A DNA stretch of 64,000 nt from Elusimicrobiota bacterium (GCA_016194745.1 JACQBA010000013.1:822-64821); one strand, 5' to 3'. Shown: positions 2,263-11,264, numbered from the stretch's first letter. Notes: generated from the sequence alone by a model not told the origin. Made by a program: numbers and translations.

Positions 2263-2742
2263 CTACGGCAAGCCGAAGGTGGCGGCCAAGCCCTCGGGGG
2301 TCGATGGACCGCTGGGAAACCCGTTCATCCGCTTGGACACGCGGCCGTCGCTTTCCGTGATGACGAACATCGGCACGCCGTCCTCGGCCGGGACTTTCTT
2401 GTCCGGGTCGAGCAAGGTCTCGGGCCCGAACGGCTGGGCGAACGTCTTGAGGCGCTCCACGGGCGCGTGGCTGACGACCACGCGGCAGGCGACCTCCGTG
2501 CCGGTCAGATGCTTCTTGAACGCGACGATGTACGGCACGACGATGTGGCAGACGCCGCACCACGGGGTGATCACGATCGTCATGCAGCGCTTGGCGGGGC
2601 ATTCCGCCAAGGACGGCGCCGTGGAGCCGTCGAGGGTCTCGAGGGTCACGTCCGGGAGCTTCTCGACCGGCTTGCAGCCGCCGCAGCCGGAGAAGGACAG
2701 CGCCGCGAGGAGCGGGACCGCGGCGAGGCGAAGGCGCGTCAT
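2263..2742 (-). CDS. Thioredoxin-like lipoprotein (TlpA/ResA-type thiol:disulfide oxidoreductase)
   Basis: Lipoprotein signal MTRLRLAAVPLLAALSFSGC; WCGVCH CxxC motif; C-terminal part of track ORF 2263..3648 (rest of that ORF is Arg-rich frame overlap). Confidence 0.65.
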   Translation of the reverse strand: MTRLRLAAVPLLAALSFSGCGGCKPVEKLPDVTLETLDGSTAPSLAECPAKRCMTIVITPWCGVCHIVVPYIVAFKKHLTGTEVACRVVVSHAPVERLKTFAQPFGPETLLDPDKKVPAEDGVPMFVITESDGRVSKRMNGFPSGPSTPEGLAATFGLP

Positions 2743-3728
2743 CGCGGCGCCCGCCACTGCTCCATTTCGCGGAGGATGCGCCAGAACTGGTCCTTCGTCT
2801 CGATCGCCCGGCTGTTCAGGTGCGGAGCGCGGGCGGTGCAGCTGCGCGGCCTCGCCGCGTAGCGCGAGCGGATGGTCTGATCGTCGCGCTCGCCCCAGAA
2901 CCAGGAGACGAATAGGATGCCTTCCCTCTGCTGGGGCGCCGAGTTCGGCCGCCAGTCGCGGCCCGGCGGCGGGACGATGCGGCTCGCCTTGATGAAGTCG
3001 AAGTCGTCGTTGCTGATGGTGATGCAGCCGGGCGTGACGGCCGTCCCGAGGTGCCGATTGACGCGCACGCGGTCGAAATCGCCCGCCCGCACGTCCCGGC
3101 GGTCGATCTCCTCGATGCGGCGCGTGCGCACCTTGTCGACGTCGTTGTCGAGGTAGCTCTCGTGGAGGAAGATGCCGCGCGCGTGCGTGCAGGCGTTGCG
3201 CTCCTCGAGGCCGTCCAAGCGGTACGCCTGGAGGTTCTGCGCGACCGTCTGCATCGCCGCCTCGTTGCCCGTCCCGAAGAGCCGCATGCAGCCGCCGGGC
3301 GTCGCCTGCGAGTCCCACTCGTCCTTGACGACGCGCGCCACGCCGGTGATACCGTCCGGCTCGTTTCCGGCGCCGTGGACCGCGCCGCCGCGCAAGATCG
3401 CGATCGACGCCTCGGGATCCTCTTGGTTCCACTGGAGTACGTGCAGCCGCACGAAATTCGCGTTCGTCGAGAAGTCCGCGATGACGACGTGTTTGGTGCT
3501 CGCCAGGCGGTGCCCGAACTCCCGCATGCATCGCTGCGCGTACGCGAGCGCCCCGCGGGGATAGTCGCCGCAGTCGCGCAGCGTCATCGGGCGGATGCGC
3601 CCCGTCTCGAAGTCGTACGTGGTCCACGTGCGCGCCGTGCCCATCCACGGGACGCAGGGTCCGCGCGAGGGCTCCGCCGACGCGGGAAGGGCTAGCGCTG
3701 CGAGCAGCGCGAAGGTCATTTTTTTCAT
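2739..3728 (-). CDS. Secreted L,D-transpeptidase (YkuD-like) domain protein
   Basis: Signal peptide MKKMTFALLAALALPASA; HLGT…TPGCITISNDDFDFI resembles YkuD catalytic HGT…SHGC(I/V)RLSNED motif; ATGA overlaps on both sides. Confidence 0.55.
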   Translation of the reverse strand: MKKMTFALLAALALPASAEPSRGPCVPWMGTARTWTTYDFETGRIRPMTLRDCGDYPRGALAYAQRCMREFGHRLASTKHVVIADFSTNANFVRLHVLQWNQEDPEASIAILRGGAVHGAGNEPDGITGVARVVKDEWDSQATPGGCMRLFGTGNEAAMQTVAQNLQAYRLDGLEERNACTHARGIFLHESYLDNDVDKVRTRRIEEIDRRDVRAGDFDRVRVNRHLGTAVTPGCITISNDDFDFIKASRIVPPPGRDWRPNSAPQQREGILFVSWFWGERDDQTIRSRYAARPRSCTARAPHLNSRAIETKDQFWRILREMEQWRAPR

Positions 3729-6700
3729 GGTTTCGGCGCGCCGGGCGGGGTCCCGGGCCTCCTGTCGTCCTTCTTTTTCCTGCGGCGCAGATAGATCAGC
3801 ACGAGGATGAATCCTCCGGCGAGCAGCCCCGCCGCGGCGGCGAGCAACTGGCTCCGGCGATCGTCCTCGGCTTGGCGGCGGTAGCGCTCCTCGAGCTCCA
3901 TCGGAAAGCAGCCGATGGTGTAGCCCGGAGGCGCCTCGACGAAAAGGAAGACTCCCTTGCACTCGACGACCGGACACGCGGGCGACGTCGGCGCGGGCGC
4001 CGGCGTGGGCGGAACAAGCACCGGAAATCCCCAGCGGGTGCGGCCGACCGACTGGCCGAGCGCGTCGCGCAGGTCCTCGGGCGTCGGCTCGGACGGCGCC
4101 GGAGGCGGCGTGCGGACGAAGGCCGCGGCGACGCGAGCCTTGACCCGCCGGTAGAGGCCGCCGAAGCCGGGCTCCGGGCGCAGCTTGATCGGGAAGCAGC
4201 CCGTCGTCCAGTCGAGCGGCGCGTCCTCCCAAAGCGGGATGCCGGGGCACGGCGGCACGGGCGGGCAATTGACGCCGGGCTTGCGCGCCGGATGAGCCGA
4301 CGTCTTCGTCTTCACTGGACGCGGCTTTCGCACGCGCACGGGCGCGGCGCTGAGCGCGTCGCGGATGTCGTCGGGCGGGCGCAGCGCGGGGCTTCCGGGC
4401 GGAGCGACGTAGCCCGGGATCACGGACTCCGCGGCGATCGCCGACTTCGTGTCCGCGGGACGTCTCCTCTCGGGCAGATCGGGAGACCCGGCCGGTCCGC
4501 CGGCGGTGCGCAGCGAGATGGGCCTGTCCTGGAATCCGGGAATCCCCGGTCCAAAGCCGCTGCCGCCGCCGAACGGCCCGAAGCCGCCCGGGTAGCCCGG
4601 AGACGGCGTCGTCGGACCGATGCCCGGCGGGCCCGCGGGGCCGGCCGCGGGAGCGGGGCTCGGCTTATCCTTCGGCGAATCCGTGCGGCCCGGGGACGGC
4701 GAAGATCCGCCGGGTGAGGGAGTCGCGGCGGGAGACGGAGAAGGTCCTGCCGCGGGTGGGGGCGACGAAGGTGAAGGTGACGGACTCGCGGGCGCGGGAG
4801 ACGGGCTCCCTCCGCCGCCACCGCCGCCGCCGGGTGAGGCGCCCGGCGGACCGCCGCCACCGCCGCCGGGCGATCCGCCGCCGGGGCTCCCTCCGCCGCC
4901 GAGACCGCCCCCGCCGCCGCCGCCGCCCGGGCTGCCGGACGGGACGGTGATGTCGGGAAAGGAGCGCGGAGAGAATCCGCCGGGCACGGGCGGCGCCGGG
5001 ACGGTGGAGCCGATGACCTGCGGCGCGCTCGGCGCGGGCGGCGGCTCGCAGGAGCCGGCCTCCCATTCCGGGATCGTCCCGATCTTCTTTTTCTCGCTCT
5101 TCTCGGCGCCTTTATCATCCGGAAGCGTGACGGACGCCAGATGGATGTCGCCCGCCCGCTCGCCGCTCACGTGCAGGCACGTCAACCCCACGGGCTCGTT
5201 GGCCTCGAAATACTTGTAGAGGCAGGCGCCGATCGAGGTCGCCTTCAGCCCCTTCTCGTCTTGAATGCCGAGCCCCTTGAGCATGTCGGCGGAGACCCCG
5301 TCGAGCTTGACCCGGCGCTCCGGCTTATCCCAAGAATGGTATCCGAGCAGGTTGGTCTGGCACGGAGGCGGCACAACGGGCTGCGGGGGCGCCGGCTTGG
5401 CGGGCGGCGGCGCGGGCGCCGGCGGAGGCGGCGTCACGAGCGGAGCCGGAGGCGCGGGCTGCTCGCAGGCGAGCTGCTCGATGGTGCCGAAGGTCTTCTT
5501 GACGAGCCGCTGCGTCCGCCGCGTGTAGTCGAGCGTGAGGATCCCGTCCTCCAGGCGCGTGCGGACGCAGGTCAGATCGTCGAACTGATTGAGGACGGTC
5601 TGCGCCTGGACGCTGAAGCAGATCGCCTTCTTGTCCTCGTCGTCGGGGACGCCGGCCCGCGTGATGATCAGGATCGAGGCCTTCTTCATGATCTCGAAGC
5701 GGGCCGGGCGTTCGGTCTCGGTGAGGTAGCCCTCGAGATTGGAGATGCAGGGGTTCTTCTTCGGCTTGGGCCTCGCCGGCGGCGGCTCGGGCGTCGGCTG
5801 GGGCTCCGGCTGCGGCTCGGGCGCGGGAGGAAGCTCGCAGGAGATGTCCTTCATCTTTCCGAAGGACTCGATCTTGATCCGCTCGCCCTTCGGCGTGTAG
5901 TCGACCTTCAAGAGGCCGCCGCCGTCGGCGCTGGTGCGCACGCAGGAGAGCTCGCCTTGCTTGCCGATGAATTCGAGGATTTTTCCGCTGATGCAGACGG
6001 TGCGCTTGCCGTCCTCGTCGGGAATATTCGCGCGCTGGAGCAGGACCGATGTCCCGCGCTCCATGATCTCCTTGCGGGCGCCGTCGTCGGCCGCGGTCAG
6101 GAAGCCCTCGAGATTGGATTTGCAGGGATTCTTCTTCGGCTTGGGTCTCGGCGTCGGTTCGGGCTGAGTCCTTGAGCTTGCCGAACGACTCGATCTTGAC
6201 CCGCTCGCCCTTCGGCGTGTAGTCGAGCTTGAGGATCCCGCCGTCGGCGCTGGTCCGCACGCACGAGAGCTCGCCCTGCTTGCCGAGGAACTCGAGAATC
6301 TTGCCGCTGATGCAGACCGTCCGCTTGCCGTCCTCGTCCGGGATCCTCGCGCGCTGGAGCAGGACCGATGTCCCGCGCTCCATGATCTCCTTGCGGGCGC
6401 CGTCGTCGGCCGCGGTCAGGAAGCCCTCGAGATTGGATTTGCAGGGATTCTTCTTCGGCTTGGGTCTCGGCGTCGGTTCGGGCTGAGCAGCGTCGTGTCG
6501 GGCGTCTCGGCCGCGGCCGGCGGCGCCGCGGGCGCGGCCTGCGGTCCGCAGGACAGCTCCGAGAATTTCCCGAACGGCTCGACCGCATTGACATTCGGCT
6601 TGTCGGAGTAGGTGAGCTTGAGGTTCCCAGCCTCCGCGGTGGTGCGGACGCAGACCAGGTCCTTTTGCTTCGACAGGAACTCCTCGAGCTTGTCGCTGAA

Positions 6701-7609
6701 GCAGGCGGCCTTCTTGCCGTCCTCGTCCGCCAGTCCCGCGCGCTTGAACAGGAGCGCCGAGGACCGCTCCAGCACCTCGCGTTTGGCGGCCGCGTCCGCG
6801 GCGCCGAGATAGCCGTCGAGATTAGACTTGCAGTAGACCTTCGGCTTCTTCGCCTGCCGCGCGCCCCCCGCGCTCGCGGCGCCGCCGTCGGCTCCCGCGA
6901 TCCACTCCTCCAGCGCTCCCAGGATCTCTTTGTGCTCGGCGCCGCGCTTGTCTTGGTAGTTCAGAACGAGGCGGCGCTCGGCGTCGAGCACGATGTCGAG
7001 ATTCGCGAACTCGGGGCGCTTGGGATGGTCGTTGAGACGCTCCTCAAGCTTCGTGGACAACAGTTCCGCCTTGGCGCCGTCCGCGTCGGGAATCATCGCG
7101 CGCTTGAGGATGTCCGAGGCCGACTGTCTCAGGATCGTCAGACGTTGGGCGGGGACGGCGGACAAATATCCCTCGACGCTGGAGCGCGGCGGAGTGACAG
7201 GCTCGGGCGCGATCCGCCGCTTGGCCCCGTCGAACATCGACGCGGATTCGCTCGCCCGTCTTAGCGCGGACCGCACGTCCCGATTCACCTCGGGCGCCAC
7301 GGCCGAGAGCGGCGGCGAGGCCGGGACGGCTTGAGCGCAGGACTGGGAATCCTGCAGGACGCCGTCCGCCTCCGCCAGGTGCCGCGACGCGTCCTCGCCG
7401 GGCTGGCCCGCGTGATCGGCCCGCAGCGCGCGCAGGCGCTCGCAGAGCGCGGCGAGCTTGTCTCGGTCCCCCGCCGACGCCGCCTGACGGATCTCGAGGA
7501 TCAGAGGCGCCGGAGACGCGGCGGGACGGGTCCCCGCCAGTGCGGCGGCGGGGATCACGAGCGCTAGCAGGGCGGCGGGGAACCGGCGGTTGACCAAGGC
7601 AGAGATCAT
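3725..7609 (-). pseudogene. Frame-disrupted gene for a ~1290-aa secreted, C-terminally TM-anchored repeat protein (≥5 copies of a novel ~90-aa Cys-containing module, Pro-rich linkers, Gly-rich tract)
   Basis: N-terminal signal peptide MISALVNRRFPAALLALVIPAAALA at 7609; modules CxSNLEGYL…(I/L)PDEDGK…C(I/F)S…LxEF…KQ…L(S/T)CVRT…G.L.LDYT…FGK…SC; C-term LLAAAAGLLAGGFILVLIYLRRRKKK; reading frame broken twice (~6487 and ~6168) at boundaries of a 319-bp tandem duplication; intact segments are track ORFs 6416..7609, 5325..6383, 3725..6064. Confidence 0.55.
6027..6487. repeat. Intragenic tandem duplication: two identical ~140-bp segments (approx 6027..6167 and 6347..6487) with period 319 bp; intervening ~190 bp is ~85% identical to 5830..6026
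   Basis: Identical strings ...gcgcgctggagcaggaccgatgtcccgcgctccatgatctccttgcgggcgccgtcgtcggccgcggtcaggaagccctcgagattggatttgcagggattcttcttcggcttgggtctcggcgtcggttcgggctgag seen twice; identical ATG positions 6064 and 6383 in ORF track give period 319 (not divisible by 3). Confidence 0.75.
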
Positions 7610-7759: not shown

Positions 7760-8425
7760 TTAGGTCCGGTAGGAGGTCGGGTCCGGCAAACCCGCGCGCC
7801 GGAACGCGTCCTTGCGCTCCGCGCACTTATTGCAGCGGCCGCAATGGGCGCGGCCCTTGGGCGCGATGCAGGAGAACGTCAATTCCCAAGGTAGACTTCG
7901 GTATTTCCGGATCACCTTGGGCTTGTCGAGGCGGCGAAACGGCGCCTCCACCCGGATCGCCGCGTCGAGACCCTCGGACACCGCCCGGCCCATCAACCGG
8001 AAGAACCGGAGGCTGGAGTCCGGGAAAGGATTCGATCCCAGCGTGCCGAGGGAGATCGTCCCGATGCCGCGCTCCGCGCAGAAGACCGCGATCTTGGATA
8101 GAAGGAGGATGTTGCGTCCCGGAAGATAGACCGCCTCGTCTCTCGACGAAGACGACGGGACTCCCCGGCCGGTCAGGCTCCAACGCGCGTGGGTGTAGGC
8201 GTCGCGGACCGGCAGTTCCAGCTGAGACAAGGCGTTCAGTCGGGGATGCCGCAAGCGCCTCAGCAGGCGCTTCAGCCAGAAGACCTCCGTCCCTTCCCAG
8301 GCGTGACCCCCCCGGACGTAGACCGGCCAGACTTTCGCCCCTAGAGCGATGGCCCCGGCGAGCATCGCCGCGCTCTCGATGCCCCCGCTCACGGAAACGC
8401 ACACTTTTCTGCCCGCCCCGGCCAT
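7760..8425 (-). CDS. queC: 7-cyano-7-deazaguanine synthase QueC
   Basis: PP-loop VSVSGGIESAAM; C-terminal Zn site CIAPKGRAHCGRCNKC. Confidence 0.85.
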   Translation of the reverse strand: MAGAGRKVCVSVSGGIESAAMLAGAIALGAKVWPVYVRGGHAWEGTEVFWLKRLLRRLRHPRLNALSQLELPVRDAYTHARWSLTGRGVPSSSSRDEAVYLPGRNILLLSKIAVFCAERGIGTISLGTLGSNPFPDSSLRFFRLMGRAVSEGLDAAIRVEAPFRRLDKPKVIRKYRSLPWELTFSCIAPKGRAHCGRCNKCAERKDAFRRAGLPDPTSYRT

Positions 8426-8554
8426 GGCTCGACTCTACCATAAAATCCTTCAAAAATATGCCCTTTTTGACCCCCTCCCCACCCGATATCCCTCCATAGG
8501 AAAAAAACGGGATTTCCACCGAGTTTTGACAGCGCCATCAGGCATCATTCAACC

Positions 8555-9313
8555 ATGGCGACTAGAACCGACGGCTCCCTACCGAAAGCTCTGAATATCC
8601 TGGCCGAGGCGCTCCTGCTGCTCGCCGTCGCGGGCGCCTTTCAGCCCGCGCACGCCGAGAGGGAGCCGGCGGCGCAAGCGGAGGAGTCCCTGGGACAGCC
8701 CTTCGACGGCGAGGCGCAGGATGGGCACGATTCGGCCGACGGCGTCGACACCGAAGAGCGCCTGGCCATGGCGCCCCGCGGCGGCGTTAGCAACCTCGTG
8801 AAGTCTGCCGCCCTGGGAGAGGGAGGCCTGGACGCGGATGATCTCGGCGACGAAATCGAGGGCGACGAGAACGGCGACGCGAACGGATTGCTCGCGATGG
8901 GTGAGGACTCCAAGACCCGCTTCACGAACGCTCTCAGCGGGACCGGCGCGGGCCGCTCGACGCGCCCTTCGTCGGCTTCTCCGGTCTATTTGGGATCGGC
9001 GCTTCGCGCCCAGAGACGGTATTTCGAAAGCCCTGCTTTCCGCAATGCGGCGGCGATGGATAGAAAAGACGCCGGCTTGATCACGAGAAGCGTCCCCGTT
9101 CCGGCGCCCCGCCCCGCCGTCTTGGACGCCCGGCTCTCCGGCATGCGCGCCGTCGAAGTCCCCCATCACGAGGAACCGTCGGCTCCGATGAGCCGGGTCC
9201 CCGCCTCGCTGCAGGTCGCCGCGGCCCTTCTCCTTTCCGTGACGATCCTCAAGATCGTGTATCGCTGGTCCATGGAGCAGGTGGCTGCGTCTCAGGTCCA
9301 GGGAGGCCTATGA
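8555..9313 (+). CDS. Hypothetical acidic envelope protein (N-terminal signal/anchor, Asp/Glu/Gly-rich, C-terminal TM)
   Basis: N-term ALNILAEALLLLAVAGAFQPAHA; C-term TM LQVAAALLLSVTILKIVYRW; TTGACA box ~25 nt upstream; low-complexity, function unknown. Confidence 0.4.
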   Translation: MATRTDGSLPKALNILAEALLLLAVAGAFQPAHAEREPAAQAEESLGQPFDGEAQDGHDSADGVDTEERLAMAPRGGVSNLVKSAALGEGGLDADDLGDEIEGDENGDANGLLAMGEDSKTRFTNALSGTGAGRSTRPSSASPVYLGSALRAQRRYFESPAFRNAAAMDRKDAGLITRSVPVPAPRPAVLDARLSGMRAVEVPHHEEPSAPMSRVPASLQVAAALLLSVTILKIVYRWSMEQVAASQVQGGL

Positions 9314-9999
9314 TCACCACGAACGTAAGACGGATCGCGGCGTCGAAGCTCTGTCGGCTCGCACTTCCGATCCTCGCACTTGCAGCTGGGGTGGTCGTGT
9401 CCTCGGTCTCCACGGCGGACGCGGCGGCGTGCAGACGGGGACGCAACTGTCCGCGGCCCCGCATGACTGCCAAGGCGCGTCTTAGACGGATGCTGCCCAA
9501 TCGCTGCGGCGCACGGGTCCGGTCGAATTGCAGAATGGTCAACCGCCTGGGACGGACGACGGGCTATCGGATCCGGGTCGGACGCCGAGTGCTCACTTTT
9601 TCCGGTCGACAGGCAGGAGCCGCATACAGGGCATTGCTGGGCCGCCGCGGCCTCACGCGCAATTTCCGCCGTCCGTCGGTGGCGCAGCTGCAAGCCCGAG
9701 CCAGAACAGCGCAAATCCAGGCCGAACTCCGCCAAAACCCGATCGGAAGCGCCATTAGAGGGAACGGACGCGACCAAGCCGCGAACGCCCGATTCAACCT
9801 GCTGACGAGGCTTCGCTTGCGCCTCGATAGACAATTGACACACTCTTGGAACTCATTCTCCCGTTACGCCGGCAACGCGAACAATCGGCAGTTTCGAGCA
9901 CTGCTTGAGCCGCTCCCTCGCCGAGCCACTCGGCGTGACTTTGCAACGAGACTCGAGTCATTCCGGACCTTCCTAAGAGATTGGACGGCAAGGTCGTAA
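9310..9999 (+). CDS. Hypothetical extremely basic (Arg-rich) secreted protein
   Basis: Signal peptide MITTNVRRIAASKLCRLALPILALAAGVVVSSVSTADA; ATGA overlap with upstream gene; locally lower GC than flanks. Confidence 0.4.
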   Translation: MITTNVRRIAASKLCRLALPILALAAGVVVSSVSTADAAACRRGRNCPRPRMTAKARLRRMLPNRCGARVRSNCRMVNRLGRTTGYRIRVGRRVLTFSGRQAGAAYRALLGRRGLTRNFRRPSVAQLQARARTAQIQAELRQNPIGSAIRGNGRDQAANARFNLLTRLRLRLDRQLTHSWNSFSRYAGNANNRQFRALLEPLPRRATRRDFATRLESFRTFLRDWTARS

Positions 10000-10187
10000 C
10001 TCCTCAGCTTCCAGCCGCCTGGTCCGTAAATTAGAGGAGCTCGATCAGCGCGGCGCGGCACCAAGTTCGCGAACTTCTTTCGATGGTTGCTGGGTCCGAT
10101 CCTTCGCGGTCAATATCGGGTGAGGCTTGCGGAATTGCGAGCCAGGTTCTTCACAACGCCGTGAAACTACGTCAGGTAGGAACGTCG

Positions 10188-11264
10188 TTAGGGAACGCGA
10201 CGAAGCTCTTGCACGGTGGCGTTTTGATCGCGACTGCCGGTGGTCGCGGTCCGTTCCTCCGGCCTGGCGCCGCGCATCACTCCGGTGACTTCTTCGGAAA
10301 CGCCCCTCGTCTTGTCACCTTTAACGGAGGTGGCCTCTAATGCCTCCATCTCCGCTTTGGAATCCGGGGAGTCCGCAGACGCCTGCACCGGCGCATTGTC
10401 GGCGTCGGAGGTGTCGGAATTGGCGCGGAAACCGGAGGGCGGACCCGCGACTGTGTAGGTCGGGCGAGGAGCGGCGACGCGGACCGTCTTGCCGAGGTCC
10501 GGCACGTGCGCTTTCTGCTGCGGCGGCGCGGGCGGCTCCTGGCCTTCGATCCGGTGGTTCGGCATCTCCTCGATGGGCGGCGCGCGGCGAGCCTCGCGAT
10601 ATTGAGCGGCGGGCGCAAGCCTCTGGGAGGAGAGCGCGACGCCGCGCGGGTTGGAACGGACATCGGAAAGATAGGCGTGCTCCATCCGCTCGGACTGGCG
10701 GCCCGGGCCGGACAAGCGGGTCGAATCCACGCGCGCCGGCGCCGGCTGCACGGCGATCGACGGCCGGCCGCGATGTCGCGCGTAGGCGCGTGCGTTGACC
10801 GGCGTATCGCGATCGCCCGCTTCGTAGCCTGCGTCCCGTACGGAGGCCGCTGCCTGCACGACGCCGGAGGAGGCCTCTCCGGGACCGCCGGAGCCGCGCC
10901 TCGAGAGGGTCGAGGACATCGGGATCGGAATGCCGCCGGACACGGCGAGGGAGTCCACGGCCCACACGACGTCGGACGGGCGCGGCGCGAAGGCCTCCGC
11001 CTCCGCCGGGACGGCGGCTCGAGGCGTCGTGGACCGTACCGCGTCCGAAACACGCGTTTTCGCCGTCCTCTTCTCGGATGTCATTGCGATGGAGGGAGTG
11101 CGCCACAGCGCGGTGAATCCCGGCATCCGGAGGAGGAGCGAAGAGATCGGGTTGCGTAAACAGTAGCCTAAGGTGGCCACGACCACGAAGGCGGCGAACA
11201 CCCGCAGGAGGTAGCGTTCCTCGTCGAGCGGCTGGGGAGAATCGTCTTTTTGTCCCTGGTCCAT
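10188..11264 (-). CDS. Hypothetical membrane-anchored Ser/Ala/Pro-rich protein
   Basis: One N-terminal TM (LLRVFAAFVVVATLGY); only non-Arg-rich frame among competing ORFs here; downstream of RR/HK operon. Confidence 0.35.
   Translation of the reverse strand: MDQGQKDDSPQPLDEERYLLRVFAAFVVVATLGYCLRNPISSLLLRMPGFTALWRTPSIAMTSEKRTAKTRVSDAVRSTTPRAAVPAEAEAFAPRPSDVVWAVDSLAVSGGIPIPMSSTLSRRGSGGPGEASSGVVQAAASVRDAGYEAGDRDTPVNARAYARHRGRPSIAVQPAPARVDSTRLSGPGRQSERMEHAYLSDVRSNPRGVALSSQRLAPAAQYREARRAPPIEEMPNHRIEGQEPPAPPQQKAHVPDLGKTVRVAAPRPTYTVAGPPSGFRANSDTSDADNAPVQASADSPDSKAEMEALEATSVKGDKTRGVSEEVTGVMRGARPEERTATTGSRDQNATVQELRRVP

Follow-up and report, generated by a model that had tools for sequence, protein, structure and literature searches.

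What is encoded on the minus strand at positions 3725-7609 of a 64,000-nt stretch from an Elusimicrobiota bacterium (GCA_016194745.1 JACQBA010000013.1:822-64821; the whole stretch is hereafter called the window)? An initial annotation, made from the sequence alone, had described one giant secreted protein built from a previously unrecognised Cys-containing repeat module. We found that the module is a real and undescribed domain, that it is present in six copies at this locus and recurs in a small family of Elusimicrobiota proteins, that genes of this family adjoin those of peptidoglycan-active enzymes, and that the reading frame of the window gene is interrupted twice. The Elusimicrobia are a diderm phylum with almost no cultured members. 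The module gene and the two genes downstream of it, which encode a YkuD-fold enzyme and a thioredoxin-like lipoprotein, are all on the minus strand, to which the coordinates below refer unless noted otherwise.

The repeat module and the protein that carries it

Three-frame translation of 3725-7609 yields a coherent protein that is spread over two frames. Frame 2, which opens at the ATG at 7609, encodes a signal peptide, a helical region and the modules M0 and M1 and then falls out of frame after ...AAAETPDTT. Module M2 is encoded in frame 1 (6488-6168). At about 6166 frame 2 is picked up again, and it runs through modules M3, M4 and M5, a 259-aa Pro/Gly/Ser tract, two Cys motifs, a transmembrane helix and RRRKKK to the stop codon at 3725-3727. 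Because the coding frame changes twice, the single giant protein of the initial annotation exists only after stitching, i.e., as a 1293-aa translation joined across the two frameshifts from 7609 to 3725 (hereafter the stitched protein). The deposited annotation has instead two hypothetical proteins, which are identical to the two open reading frames (ORFs) that we called: ORF A of 397 aa (6416..7609; GenBank MBI3549503.1, HY078_10735) and ORF B of 779 aa (3725..6064; MBI3549502.1, HY078_10730), both from an Elusimicrobia bacterium metagenome-assembled genome (MAG), in which their contig is 386,545 nt long. ORF A consists of the signal peptide, the N-terminal helical region with its FDG motif, M0, M1 and a 26-aa out-of-frame tail that terminates at the TGA at 6418-6416. 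ORF B starts at a Met within M3 (6064), which is the first start codon of the resumed frame 2, and has no signal peptide. Users of the two entries should handle both as fragments, as the annotation of the MAG splits the gene at the repeat.

The initial annotation had counted at least five copies of the module. We identified six, each of ~100 aa, between 5039 and 7186, of which five contain Cys and one (M0) does not. When a hidden Markov model (HMM) trained solely on 22 modules from other genomes, with the window copies excluded, was run against the six-frame translation of the window, its only matches were these six copies (independent E-values 6e-14 to 7e-29). The first copy, M0 (6881..7186; E 9e-25), is a Cys-less variant that is similar to the single module of relatives of 450-610 aa. 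It is followed by the canonical module M1 (6539..6841; E 7e-29), by M2 (6168..6452; E 2e-21), which is 94% identical to M3 and in this assembly lacks the fourth Cys and the linker, and by two further canonical modules detected with the HMM, M3 (5825..6133) and M4 (5456..5758). The four Cys of the canonical modules are conserved: helix 2 and strand 1 contribute one each, and the other two are at the N-terminal end and in the C-terminal tail of the module. The last copy, M5 (5039..5371; E 6e-14), is of a divergent terminal type, in which the second Cys, that of helix 2, is moved by about one helical turn and a Trp stands ahead of the last Cys. The modules thus fall into three classes: canonical modules with four Cys, terminal modules, and Cys-less modules, which comprise M0 and those of all single-module proteins.

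An AlphaFold2 model of the module, for which the alignment consisted of the six window copies only, has a predicted local distance difference test score (pLDDT) of 86 and a predicted template modelling score (pTM) of 0.78. In the predicted fold, an extended segment at the N-terminus precedes two helices and an antiparallel sheet of three strands. Foldseek searches with this model returned no match at E<=0.001 and no significant structural neighbour. No module match to Pfam-A 2025 or NCBIfam r20 was found in the stitched protein, the isolated module or seven relatives, the sub-threshold matches falling outside the modules only, and a profile search of the sequences in the PDB gave a best E-value of 0.79. 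These results bear out the earlier impression that the module belongs to no known family, while the confident predicted fold and the recovery by an HMM from other genomes argue against a low-complexity artefact. What is new at the locus is the domain, which has not been described before; the envelope protein that contains it is of a familiar type.

Outside the modules, the stitched protein begins with a Sec-type signal peptide (MISALVNRRFPAALLALVIPAAALA|G; 7535..7609), which was recognised by sequence reading and hydropathy. The N-terminal helical region that follows (7214..7507) contains two Cys and a conserved FDGxxRR motif. Comparison within the family showed that this region and the FDG motif are common to all members, the Cys-less branch lacking the two Cys. 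Downstream of the last module is a low-complexity spacer of 259 aa (4271..5047; P 25%, G 23%, S 13%, A 10%), which includes the sequence DDIRDAL; the initial annotation had taken this Gly/Ser/Pro tract to separate the modules. It is followed by a juxtamembrane region (3902..4270) with EDLRDAL and two three-Cys motifs (C..C..PxxW/YTxGCFP), which are conserved in the orthologues, and by a C-terminal transmembrane helix (LLAAAAGLLAGGFILVLIYL; 3728..3847, including the tail) with a polybasic tail that is predicted to be cytoplasmic. As the initial annotation had proposed, hydropathy places a signal peptide and a C-terminal helix with a polybasic tail at the two ends of the stitched protein: only two segments are hydrophobic, the signal peptide and residues 1252-1275, the latter followed by RRRKKK. 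Given these two segments and the positive-inside rule, we infer that the protein would be anchored in the inner membrane with its N-terminus out and its C-terminus in, all else being in the periplasm. It should be added that all members of the family have, in their disordered regions, the short motif [DE][DE](L/I/F)(R/H/K)DA(L/V) (~4370, DDIRDAL, and ~4080, EDLRDAL, in the window; also in P0003, P0004 and P0006-P0018, described below), which may be a linear binding motif.

Relatives of the module protein and their gene neighbours

A HMMER search with a profile of the six window copies against 1.84 billion representative proteins identified 18 proteins, i.e., 17 bacterial clusters and one mussel protein. 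The bacterial ones included the two window ORFs, two intact multi-module proteins, P0003 (914 aa) and P0004 (859 aa), and thirteen proteins of 269-612 aa (one truncated), each with a single Cys-less module. All named bacterial sources were Elusimicrobia/Elusimicrobiota MAGs. The exhaustive HMMER search was needed, since a word-indexed homologue search with M3-M5, or with an alignment of 28 modules, found no relatives, and a scan of Joint Genome Institute (JGI) metagenomes for the pattern CKSNLEGY gave 48 pattern matches and 0 relatives. The mussel protein (P0005; Mytilus coruscus CAC5405735.1, 2998 aa) was set aside as probably spurious: it is mucin-like, and its total E-value of 2.6e-14 against the module profile comes from 13 weak partial stretches. 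The module, which had been noted in the window protein, is thus not unique to it and is the mark of a small Elusimicrobiota family that includes Cys-less single-module proteins.

The orthologues closest to the window protein in layout are P0003 and P0004, from Logan assemblies SRR13076523 and SRR22387887, and the gene at locus L003 (CAZTZW010000056), each of which is a single intact ORF; that of L003 leaves the contig end within the spacer. Their order is a signal peptide, a helical region with two Cys, FDGxRRR, two canonical modules, one module of the same terminal type as M5, and a Gly/Ser-rich spacer. P0003 and P0004 additionally have two PPGW-x-SGCFP motifs, and P0003 ends in a transmembrane helix and a basic tail. 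These orthologues share with the window protein the order of domains and the YkuD-fold and thioredoxin-like neighbours. They differ from it in having three modules and no Cys-less M0, whereas the window gene has six modules and is frameshifted; in addition, the gene order at two of the orthologue loci is divergent, unlike that in the window.

The second branch consists of the single-module proteins (450-610 aa, P0006-P0018, e.g., MFI5349525.1, hypothetical), in which the N-terminal region, FDG, a Gly-rich spacer, [DE][DE]L[RH]DA[VL] and a C-terminal transmembrane helix are found, all of these parts being free of Cys, as is the module. Their module aligns with M0, and their genes, like that of the window, are directly upstream of a gene for a peptidoglycan enzyme. 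They differ from the window gene in lacking the juxtamembrane Cys motifs and the thioredoxin-like gene, and their neighbour belongs to Amidase_2 or SLT rather than to the YkuD fold. The window protein has a Cys-less M0 together with five Cys modules. The features common to the family, i.e., a signal peptide, a helical FDG region, the module, a Gly-rich spacer, a transmembrane helix and an adjoining peptidoglycan enzyme, are all present in the window gene after stitching only.

The gene directly downstream in the window (2739..3728; GenBank HY078_10725, there called 3 codons shorter) encodes a secreted protein of 329 aa, and its ATG overlaps the stop codon of the module gene (ATGA). The match of this protein to Pfam YkuD_2 (18.7 bits, E 1.2e-3) is below the gathering cut-off of 27; of the 20 homologues that we found, 13 match YkuD_2 at E<0.01 (best 1.3e-6), and the five that are named or could be traced to a named MAG are all from Elusimicrobia/Elusimicrobiota. 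Its AlphaFold2 model (pLDDT 84, pTM 0.87) has the YkuD beta-sandwich catalytic fold, with the L,D-carboxypeptidases Csd6 (4xzz) and Pgp2 (6xj7) as its top structural neighbours. Structural comparison of the model thus confirms the YkuD fold, in line with the L,D-transpeptidase-like neighbour of the initial annotation.

Two candidate catalytic residues, H189 (in FLHES) and C235 (in TPGCI), are conserved without exception in the 20 homologues. An hhalign comparison with Bacillus subtilis YkuD (1Y7M) gave a short match of low probability that placed TPGCITISNDDFDFIKASRIVP on SKGCIRMHNKDVIELASIVP and thereby aligned C235 with the catalytic Cys of YkuD (SKGCIRM). A second invariant Cys, C147, is part of PGGCMRL (residues 144-150), which resembles the GC-phi-R(M/L) part of the YkuD signature; as a candidate for the catalytic residue, C147 was set aside in favour of C235 after the hhalign comparison. 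The spacing between His and Cys is ~46 residues, compared to ~17, and no Arg-Met/Leu follows the Cys. The homologues have six invariant Cys and one near-invariant Cys. Relative to YkuD-family enzymes (Csd6, Pgp2, Ldtfm, LdtMt2, YkuD), the window protein is distinguished by a ~45-residue insert between His and Cys, by six further conserved Cys and by the absence of Arg-Met/Leu after GCphi. The family signature is phi-G-phi-HG(S/T)...(S/T)xGC-phi-R(M/L), with a catalytic His and Cys, and its enzymes include transpeptidases, carboxypeptidases and endopeptidases and also attach or detach proteins (PMC12729407). With its conserved His and Cys, catalytic competence of the window enzyme is plausible.

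The third gene (2263..2742), whose ATG overlaps the stop codon of the YkuD-fold gene (ATGA), encodes a lipoprotein of 159 aa with a lipobox, CPxxKC and WCGVC. A profile of this protein and its orthologues (L003, 7331-7800; L004, 4912-5376; L007, 104-562) matched PDI, a thioredoxin-family protein, DsbE and ResA at E 2e-5 to 5e-3, and Pfam Redoxin matched the window protein at E 1.8e-4, which is under the family cut-off. The upstream CPxxKC is invariant in the four orthologues. The active site reads WCGVC in the window and L004 and WSGVC, in which the usual nucleophilic Cys is lost, in L003 and L007. The thioredoxin-like lipoprotein that had been assigned to this operon is hence supported by its fold, by WCGVC and by the ATGA overlap.

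Homologues of the module gene next to ykuD/tlpA-like genes of other genomes had been suggested as a check, and the trio of module protein, YkuD-fold protein and thioredoxin-like protein is indeed present in all four loci with Cys modules, i.e., the window, L003, L004 and L007. Their order with overlapping stop and start codons is kept in the window and L004, and the layout is divergent in L003 and L007. Both the module protein and the thioredoxin-like gene are missing from four further loci with YkuD-like homologues; in one of them, in a complete 3.8-Mb genome, the YkuD-like gene adjoins a Peptidase_S11 gene. Given these four loci, the thioredoxin-like gene tracks the Cys-rich module protein and not the YkuD-like enzyme alone. 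For the single-module branch, the gene downstream was determined in three genomes and encodes Amidase_2 (P0009, P0013) or SLT (P0007) within conserved synteny. Since YkuD-fold, amidase and SLT genes adjoin members of the family, the constant neighbour is a peptidoglycan-active enzyme of varying type. The periplasmic, cell-wall-associated and disulfide-containing role that had been suggested for the window protein would fit this neighbourhood.

Two other features of these loci were observed. The single-module genes of L013 (6001-8963), L016 (6001-8999) and L018 (6001-8992) are located between the hydrolase gene (Amidase_2 or SLT) and an Ole/polyketide synthase-like lipid cluster, which comprises a ketoacyl-synthase/FabA megasynthase, a thiolase, an alpha/beta hydrolase, an AMP-binding enzyme and a 3-beta-hydroxysteroid dehydrogenase-like reductase. 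L011 (CAZTZW010000341) and L003 are from one MAG with two YkuD-like paralogues, only one of which adjoins a module protein; the L011 paralogue precedes a gene for a 193-aa Gly-rich membrane protein.

Two frameshifts at a 319-bp duplication

Tandem Repeats Finder identified a tandem DNA repeat at 5846..6487 with a period of 319 bp, 2.0 copies and 91% identity. As 319 = 1 mod 3, the period is not divisible by 3. The two copies match completely over ~142 nt at their start and differ by about 12% over the remaining 177 nt. Between M2 and M3, this diverged part has 15 synonymous and 6 conservative non-synonymous codon changes and one in-frame codon indel. Because these differences are mostly synonymous or conservative, M2 must have evolved as a translated module, and both 319-bp copies, to judge from their codons, are shaped by purifying selection, each in its own frame. 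A plot of GC content at third codon positions (GC3) by frame provided independent evidence of a switch of coding frame at 6180-6420 and revealed no similar break across roughly 50 other genes of the window.

Each frameshift coincides exactly with the 5' border of the ~142-nt stretch of identity. At the first junction, J1 (6488..6500, ~6490), which is at the 5' edge of the 319-bp repeat, frame 2 passes to frame 1 by one base missing or two extra, and the Pro/Ala linker of M1 meets ...QPEPTPRPKPKKNPC one base out of register. At the second, J2 (6164..6170, ~6167), which is at the end of M2, frame 1 passes back to frame 2: M2 stops at FGKLKD and is joined directly to QPEPTPRPKPKKNPC, without the ISC tail that carries the fourth Cys and without a linker. 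The start-to-start spacing is 375 nt (in frame) between M4 and M3, 319 nt between M3 and M2, and 389 nt between M2 and M1. Relative to the spacing of M3 and M4, J2 is short by 56 nt, and 56 = 2 mod 3; addition of 56 nt would therefore restore the frame and supply the missing Cys. The truncation of M2 is also the only reason why the stitched protein has an odd number of Cys (27).

Three explanations were considered and rejected. Programmed frameshifting is not supported, as slippery heptamers and homopolymers are absent from both junctions and the protein would require two shifts of opposite direction. Phase variation by the copy number of the 319-bp unit would not work: whatever that number, translation enters copy 1 out of frame and meets a TGA there, so that no copy number opens the frame. 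Generic indel noise does not agree with the intact state of the other window genes. Two readings are left after these exclusions: either sequence was lost or mis-joined at the repeat edges in a short-read MAG, or a real rearrangement took place very recently. An assembly artefact at the GC-rich linkers (roughly 80% GC) is slightly favoured over a true disruption, given the evolution of M2 as a translated module, the location of the junctions at the repeat edges, the shortfall of 56 nt, the odd number of Cys and the ~50 unbroken genes of the window. The only contig from the same organism that we found (Logan SRR12113409, 2148 nt) begins downstream of the repeats, and neither the 397-aa nor the 779-aa ORF gave a match when its exact protein sequence was looked up in the contig index. 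Two contigs of species-representative MAGs that carry orthologues, L002 (end 5427) and L003 (end 10893), end in or just past the module/Gly-rich region, which fits the idea that these repeats break short-read assemblies.

A putative partner of peptidoglycan enzymes

The reading that we tentatively prefer, while judging it somewhat short of probable, is that the product of the locus is a periplasm-facing type-I membrane protein, specific to the Elusimicrobiota, which spans the periplasm and is a partner of peptidoglycan enzymes. The C-terminal helix would fix this protein in the inner membrane, and the disordered Gly/Ser/Pro spacer of ~260 aa would let the folded modules reach the peptidoglycan layer, where they may position, activate, restrain or otherwise partner the enzyme encoded immediately downstream, here a putative L,D-transpeptidase or carboxypeptidase of the YkuD fold. 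The four Cys of the canonical modules presumably form two disulfides, and the co-transcribed thioredoxin-like lipoprotein would form or isomerise the many disulfides in this Cys-rich branch. In this assembly the gene is interrupted by two frameshifts that compensate each other, one at the 5' edge of each duplication copy, and the reading includes the slight preference for an assembly defect stated above.

Several points weigh against this proposal. The suggested partnership with an enzyme is drawn from the synteny of 4 + 3 loci of one phylum, and the module has no similarity to known peptidoglycan-binding or enzyme-regulating domains in Pfam, NCBIfam, the PDB or Foldseek searches. The WSGVC of two of the four loci weakens a classical oxidoreductase role of the thioredoxin-like protein, which could also serve the Cys-rich YkuD-fold enzyme instead of the modules. 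With regard to the interruption of the gene, an assembly artefact would require that the sequences of J1 and J2 be absent from the reads, and since the junction k-mers of a de Bruijn assembly normally come from reads, a real rearrangement is favoured on this point. The look-ups of the ORF proteins in the contig index, the sources of the relatives and the JGI metagenome scan yielded no independent assembly of the junction region.

The strongest alternative, which we regard as a serious possibility, is accordingly that the frameshifts are real and the gene is a recent pseudogene, disrupted in the population. An out-of-frame tandem duplication of 319 bp, or unequal recombination, together with a second indel would have left a secreted N-terminal fragment of 397 aa, with the remainder untranslated or misdirected. 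In addition to the expectation that short-read assemblies hold only k-mers present in reads, the occurrence of both junctions in the deposited sequence, where the NCBI annotation has two proteins, the repeat period that is not a multiple of 3 and the failure of any copy number of the unit to give an open frame are all consistent with such a disruption. Against it are the overwhelmingly synonymous divergence of M2 and M3, because of which any disruption must be very recent, the downstream genes, which are still intact and translationally coupled, the intact state of the three orthologues, and the position of both breaks at a repeat edge beside GC-rich linkers, a typical site of assembly failure.

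The module protein could also be a substrate rather than a partner, with the YkuD-fold enzyme linking it covalently to meso-diaminopimelate as a tether between the inner membrane and the wall, comparable to the attachment of Lpp or outer-membrane proteins by L,D-transpeptidases. YkuD-family enzymes are able to anchor proteins to peptidoglycan (review PMC12729407), and the two genes are tightly coupled and conserved as a pair in four genomes. Such a tether is nonetheless improbable: the neighbour of the single-module relatives is an amidase or a lytic transglycosylase, hydrolases that attach no proteins, which argues against it as a general rule; the orthologues have no conserved mature N-terminus, and the C-terminus is predicted to be cytoplasmic; and the top structural neighbours of the enzyme are carboxypeptidases. 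Very improbable is a surface adhesin or S-layer-like stalk whose repeated modules would mediate adhesion and whose transmembrane helix and basic tail would be a sorting signal for a sortase/exosortase-type system. In its favour are the adhesin-like tandem modules, low-complexity stalk and C-terminal helix with its basic tail and a weak match to Gram_pos_anchor (E 0.066). That match, however, has 13.6 bits, under the cut-off of 20, no PEP-CTERM or other sorting model of NCBIfam and no LPx[TSA]G (regular-expression search) was found in the stitched protein, the called genes of L004 and L007 include neither a sortase nor an exosortase, and the conserved neighbours are periplasmic peptidoglycan and redox enzymes.

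The proposed partnership with peptidoglycan enzymes has parallels elsewhere. In Escherichia coli, LpoA/LpoB and the amidase activators EnvC/NlpD are envelope-spanning regulators of peptidoglycan enzymes with long disordered linkers. By functional analogy, the module protein would share with them a membrane anchor, a flexible spacer, a small folded domain and a genetic pairing with an enzyme; no similarity in sequence or fold was detected, and the module protein differs from them in being anchored by a C-terminal inner-membrane helix, not by an outer-membrane lipid. A broader reading, which we consider unlikely, is that the family represents a phylum-specific class of inner-membrane-anchored, periplasm-spanning adaptors, each dedicated to the peptidoglycan enzyme that adjoins it, with an undescribed fold and an Lpo/EnvC-like principle. 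As part of that same unlikely reading, one branch would have multiplied the adaptor fold, stapled it with disulfides and come to travel with its own thioredoxin-like lipoprotein. If the proposed role as a partner of peptidoglycan enzymes holds, the locus would offer a first handle on how Elusimicrobia control their cell-wall enzymes and would add an undescribed domain family to the modules of the envelope; given that the family is small and taxonomically narrow, its wider impact would be modest.

Elsewhere in the window, Rfam and tRNA scans, which covered its full length, gave no matches. Upstream of the module gene, a region of ~2.5 kb (8370-10890) has no third-position GC periodicity in any frame, despite the presence of ORFs (8555..9313 and 9310..9999 on the plus strand, 10188..11264 on the minus strand). 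The first of these, 8555..9313, encodes a protein with a signal-like N-terminus, a PFDGE motif and a hydrophobic C-terminal segment.

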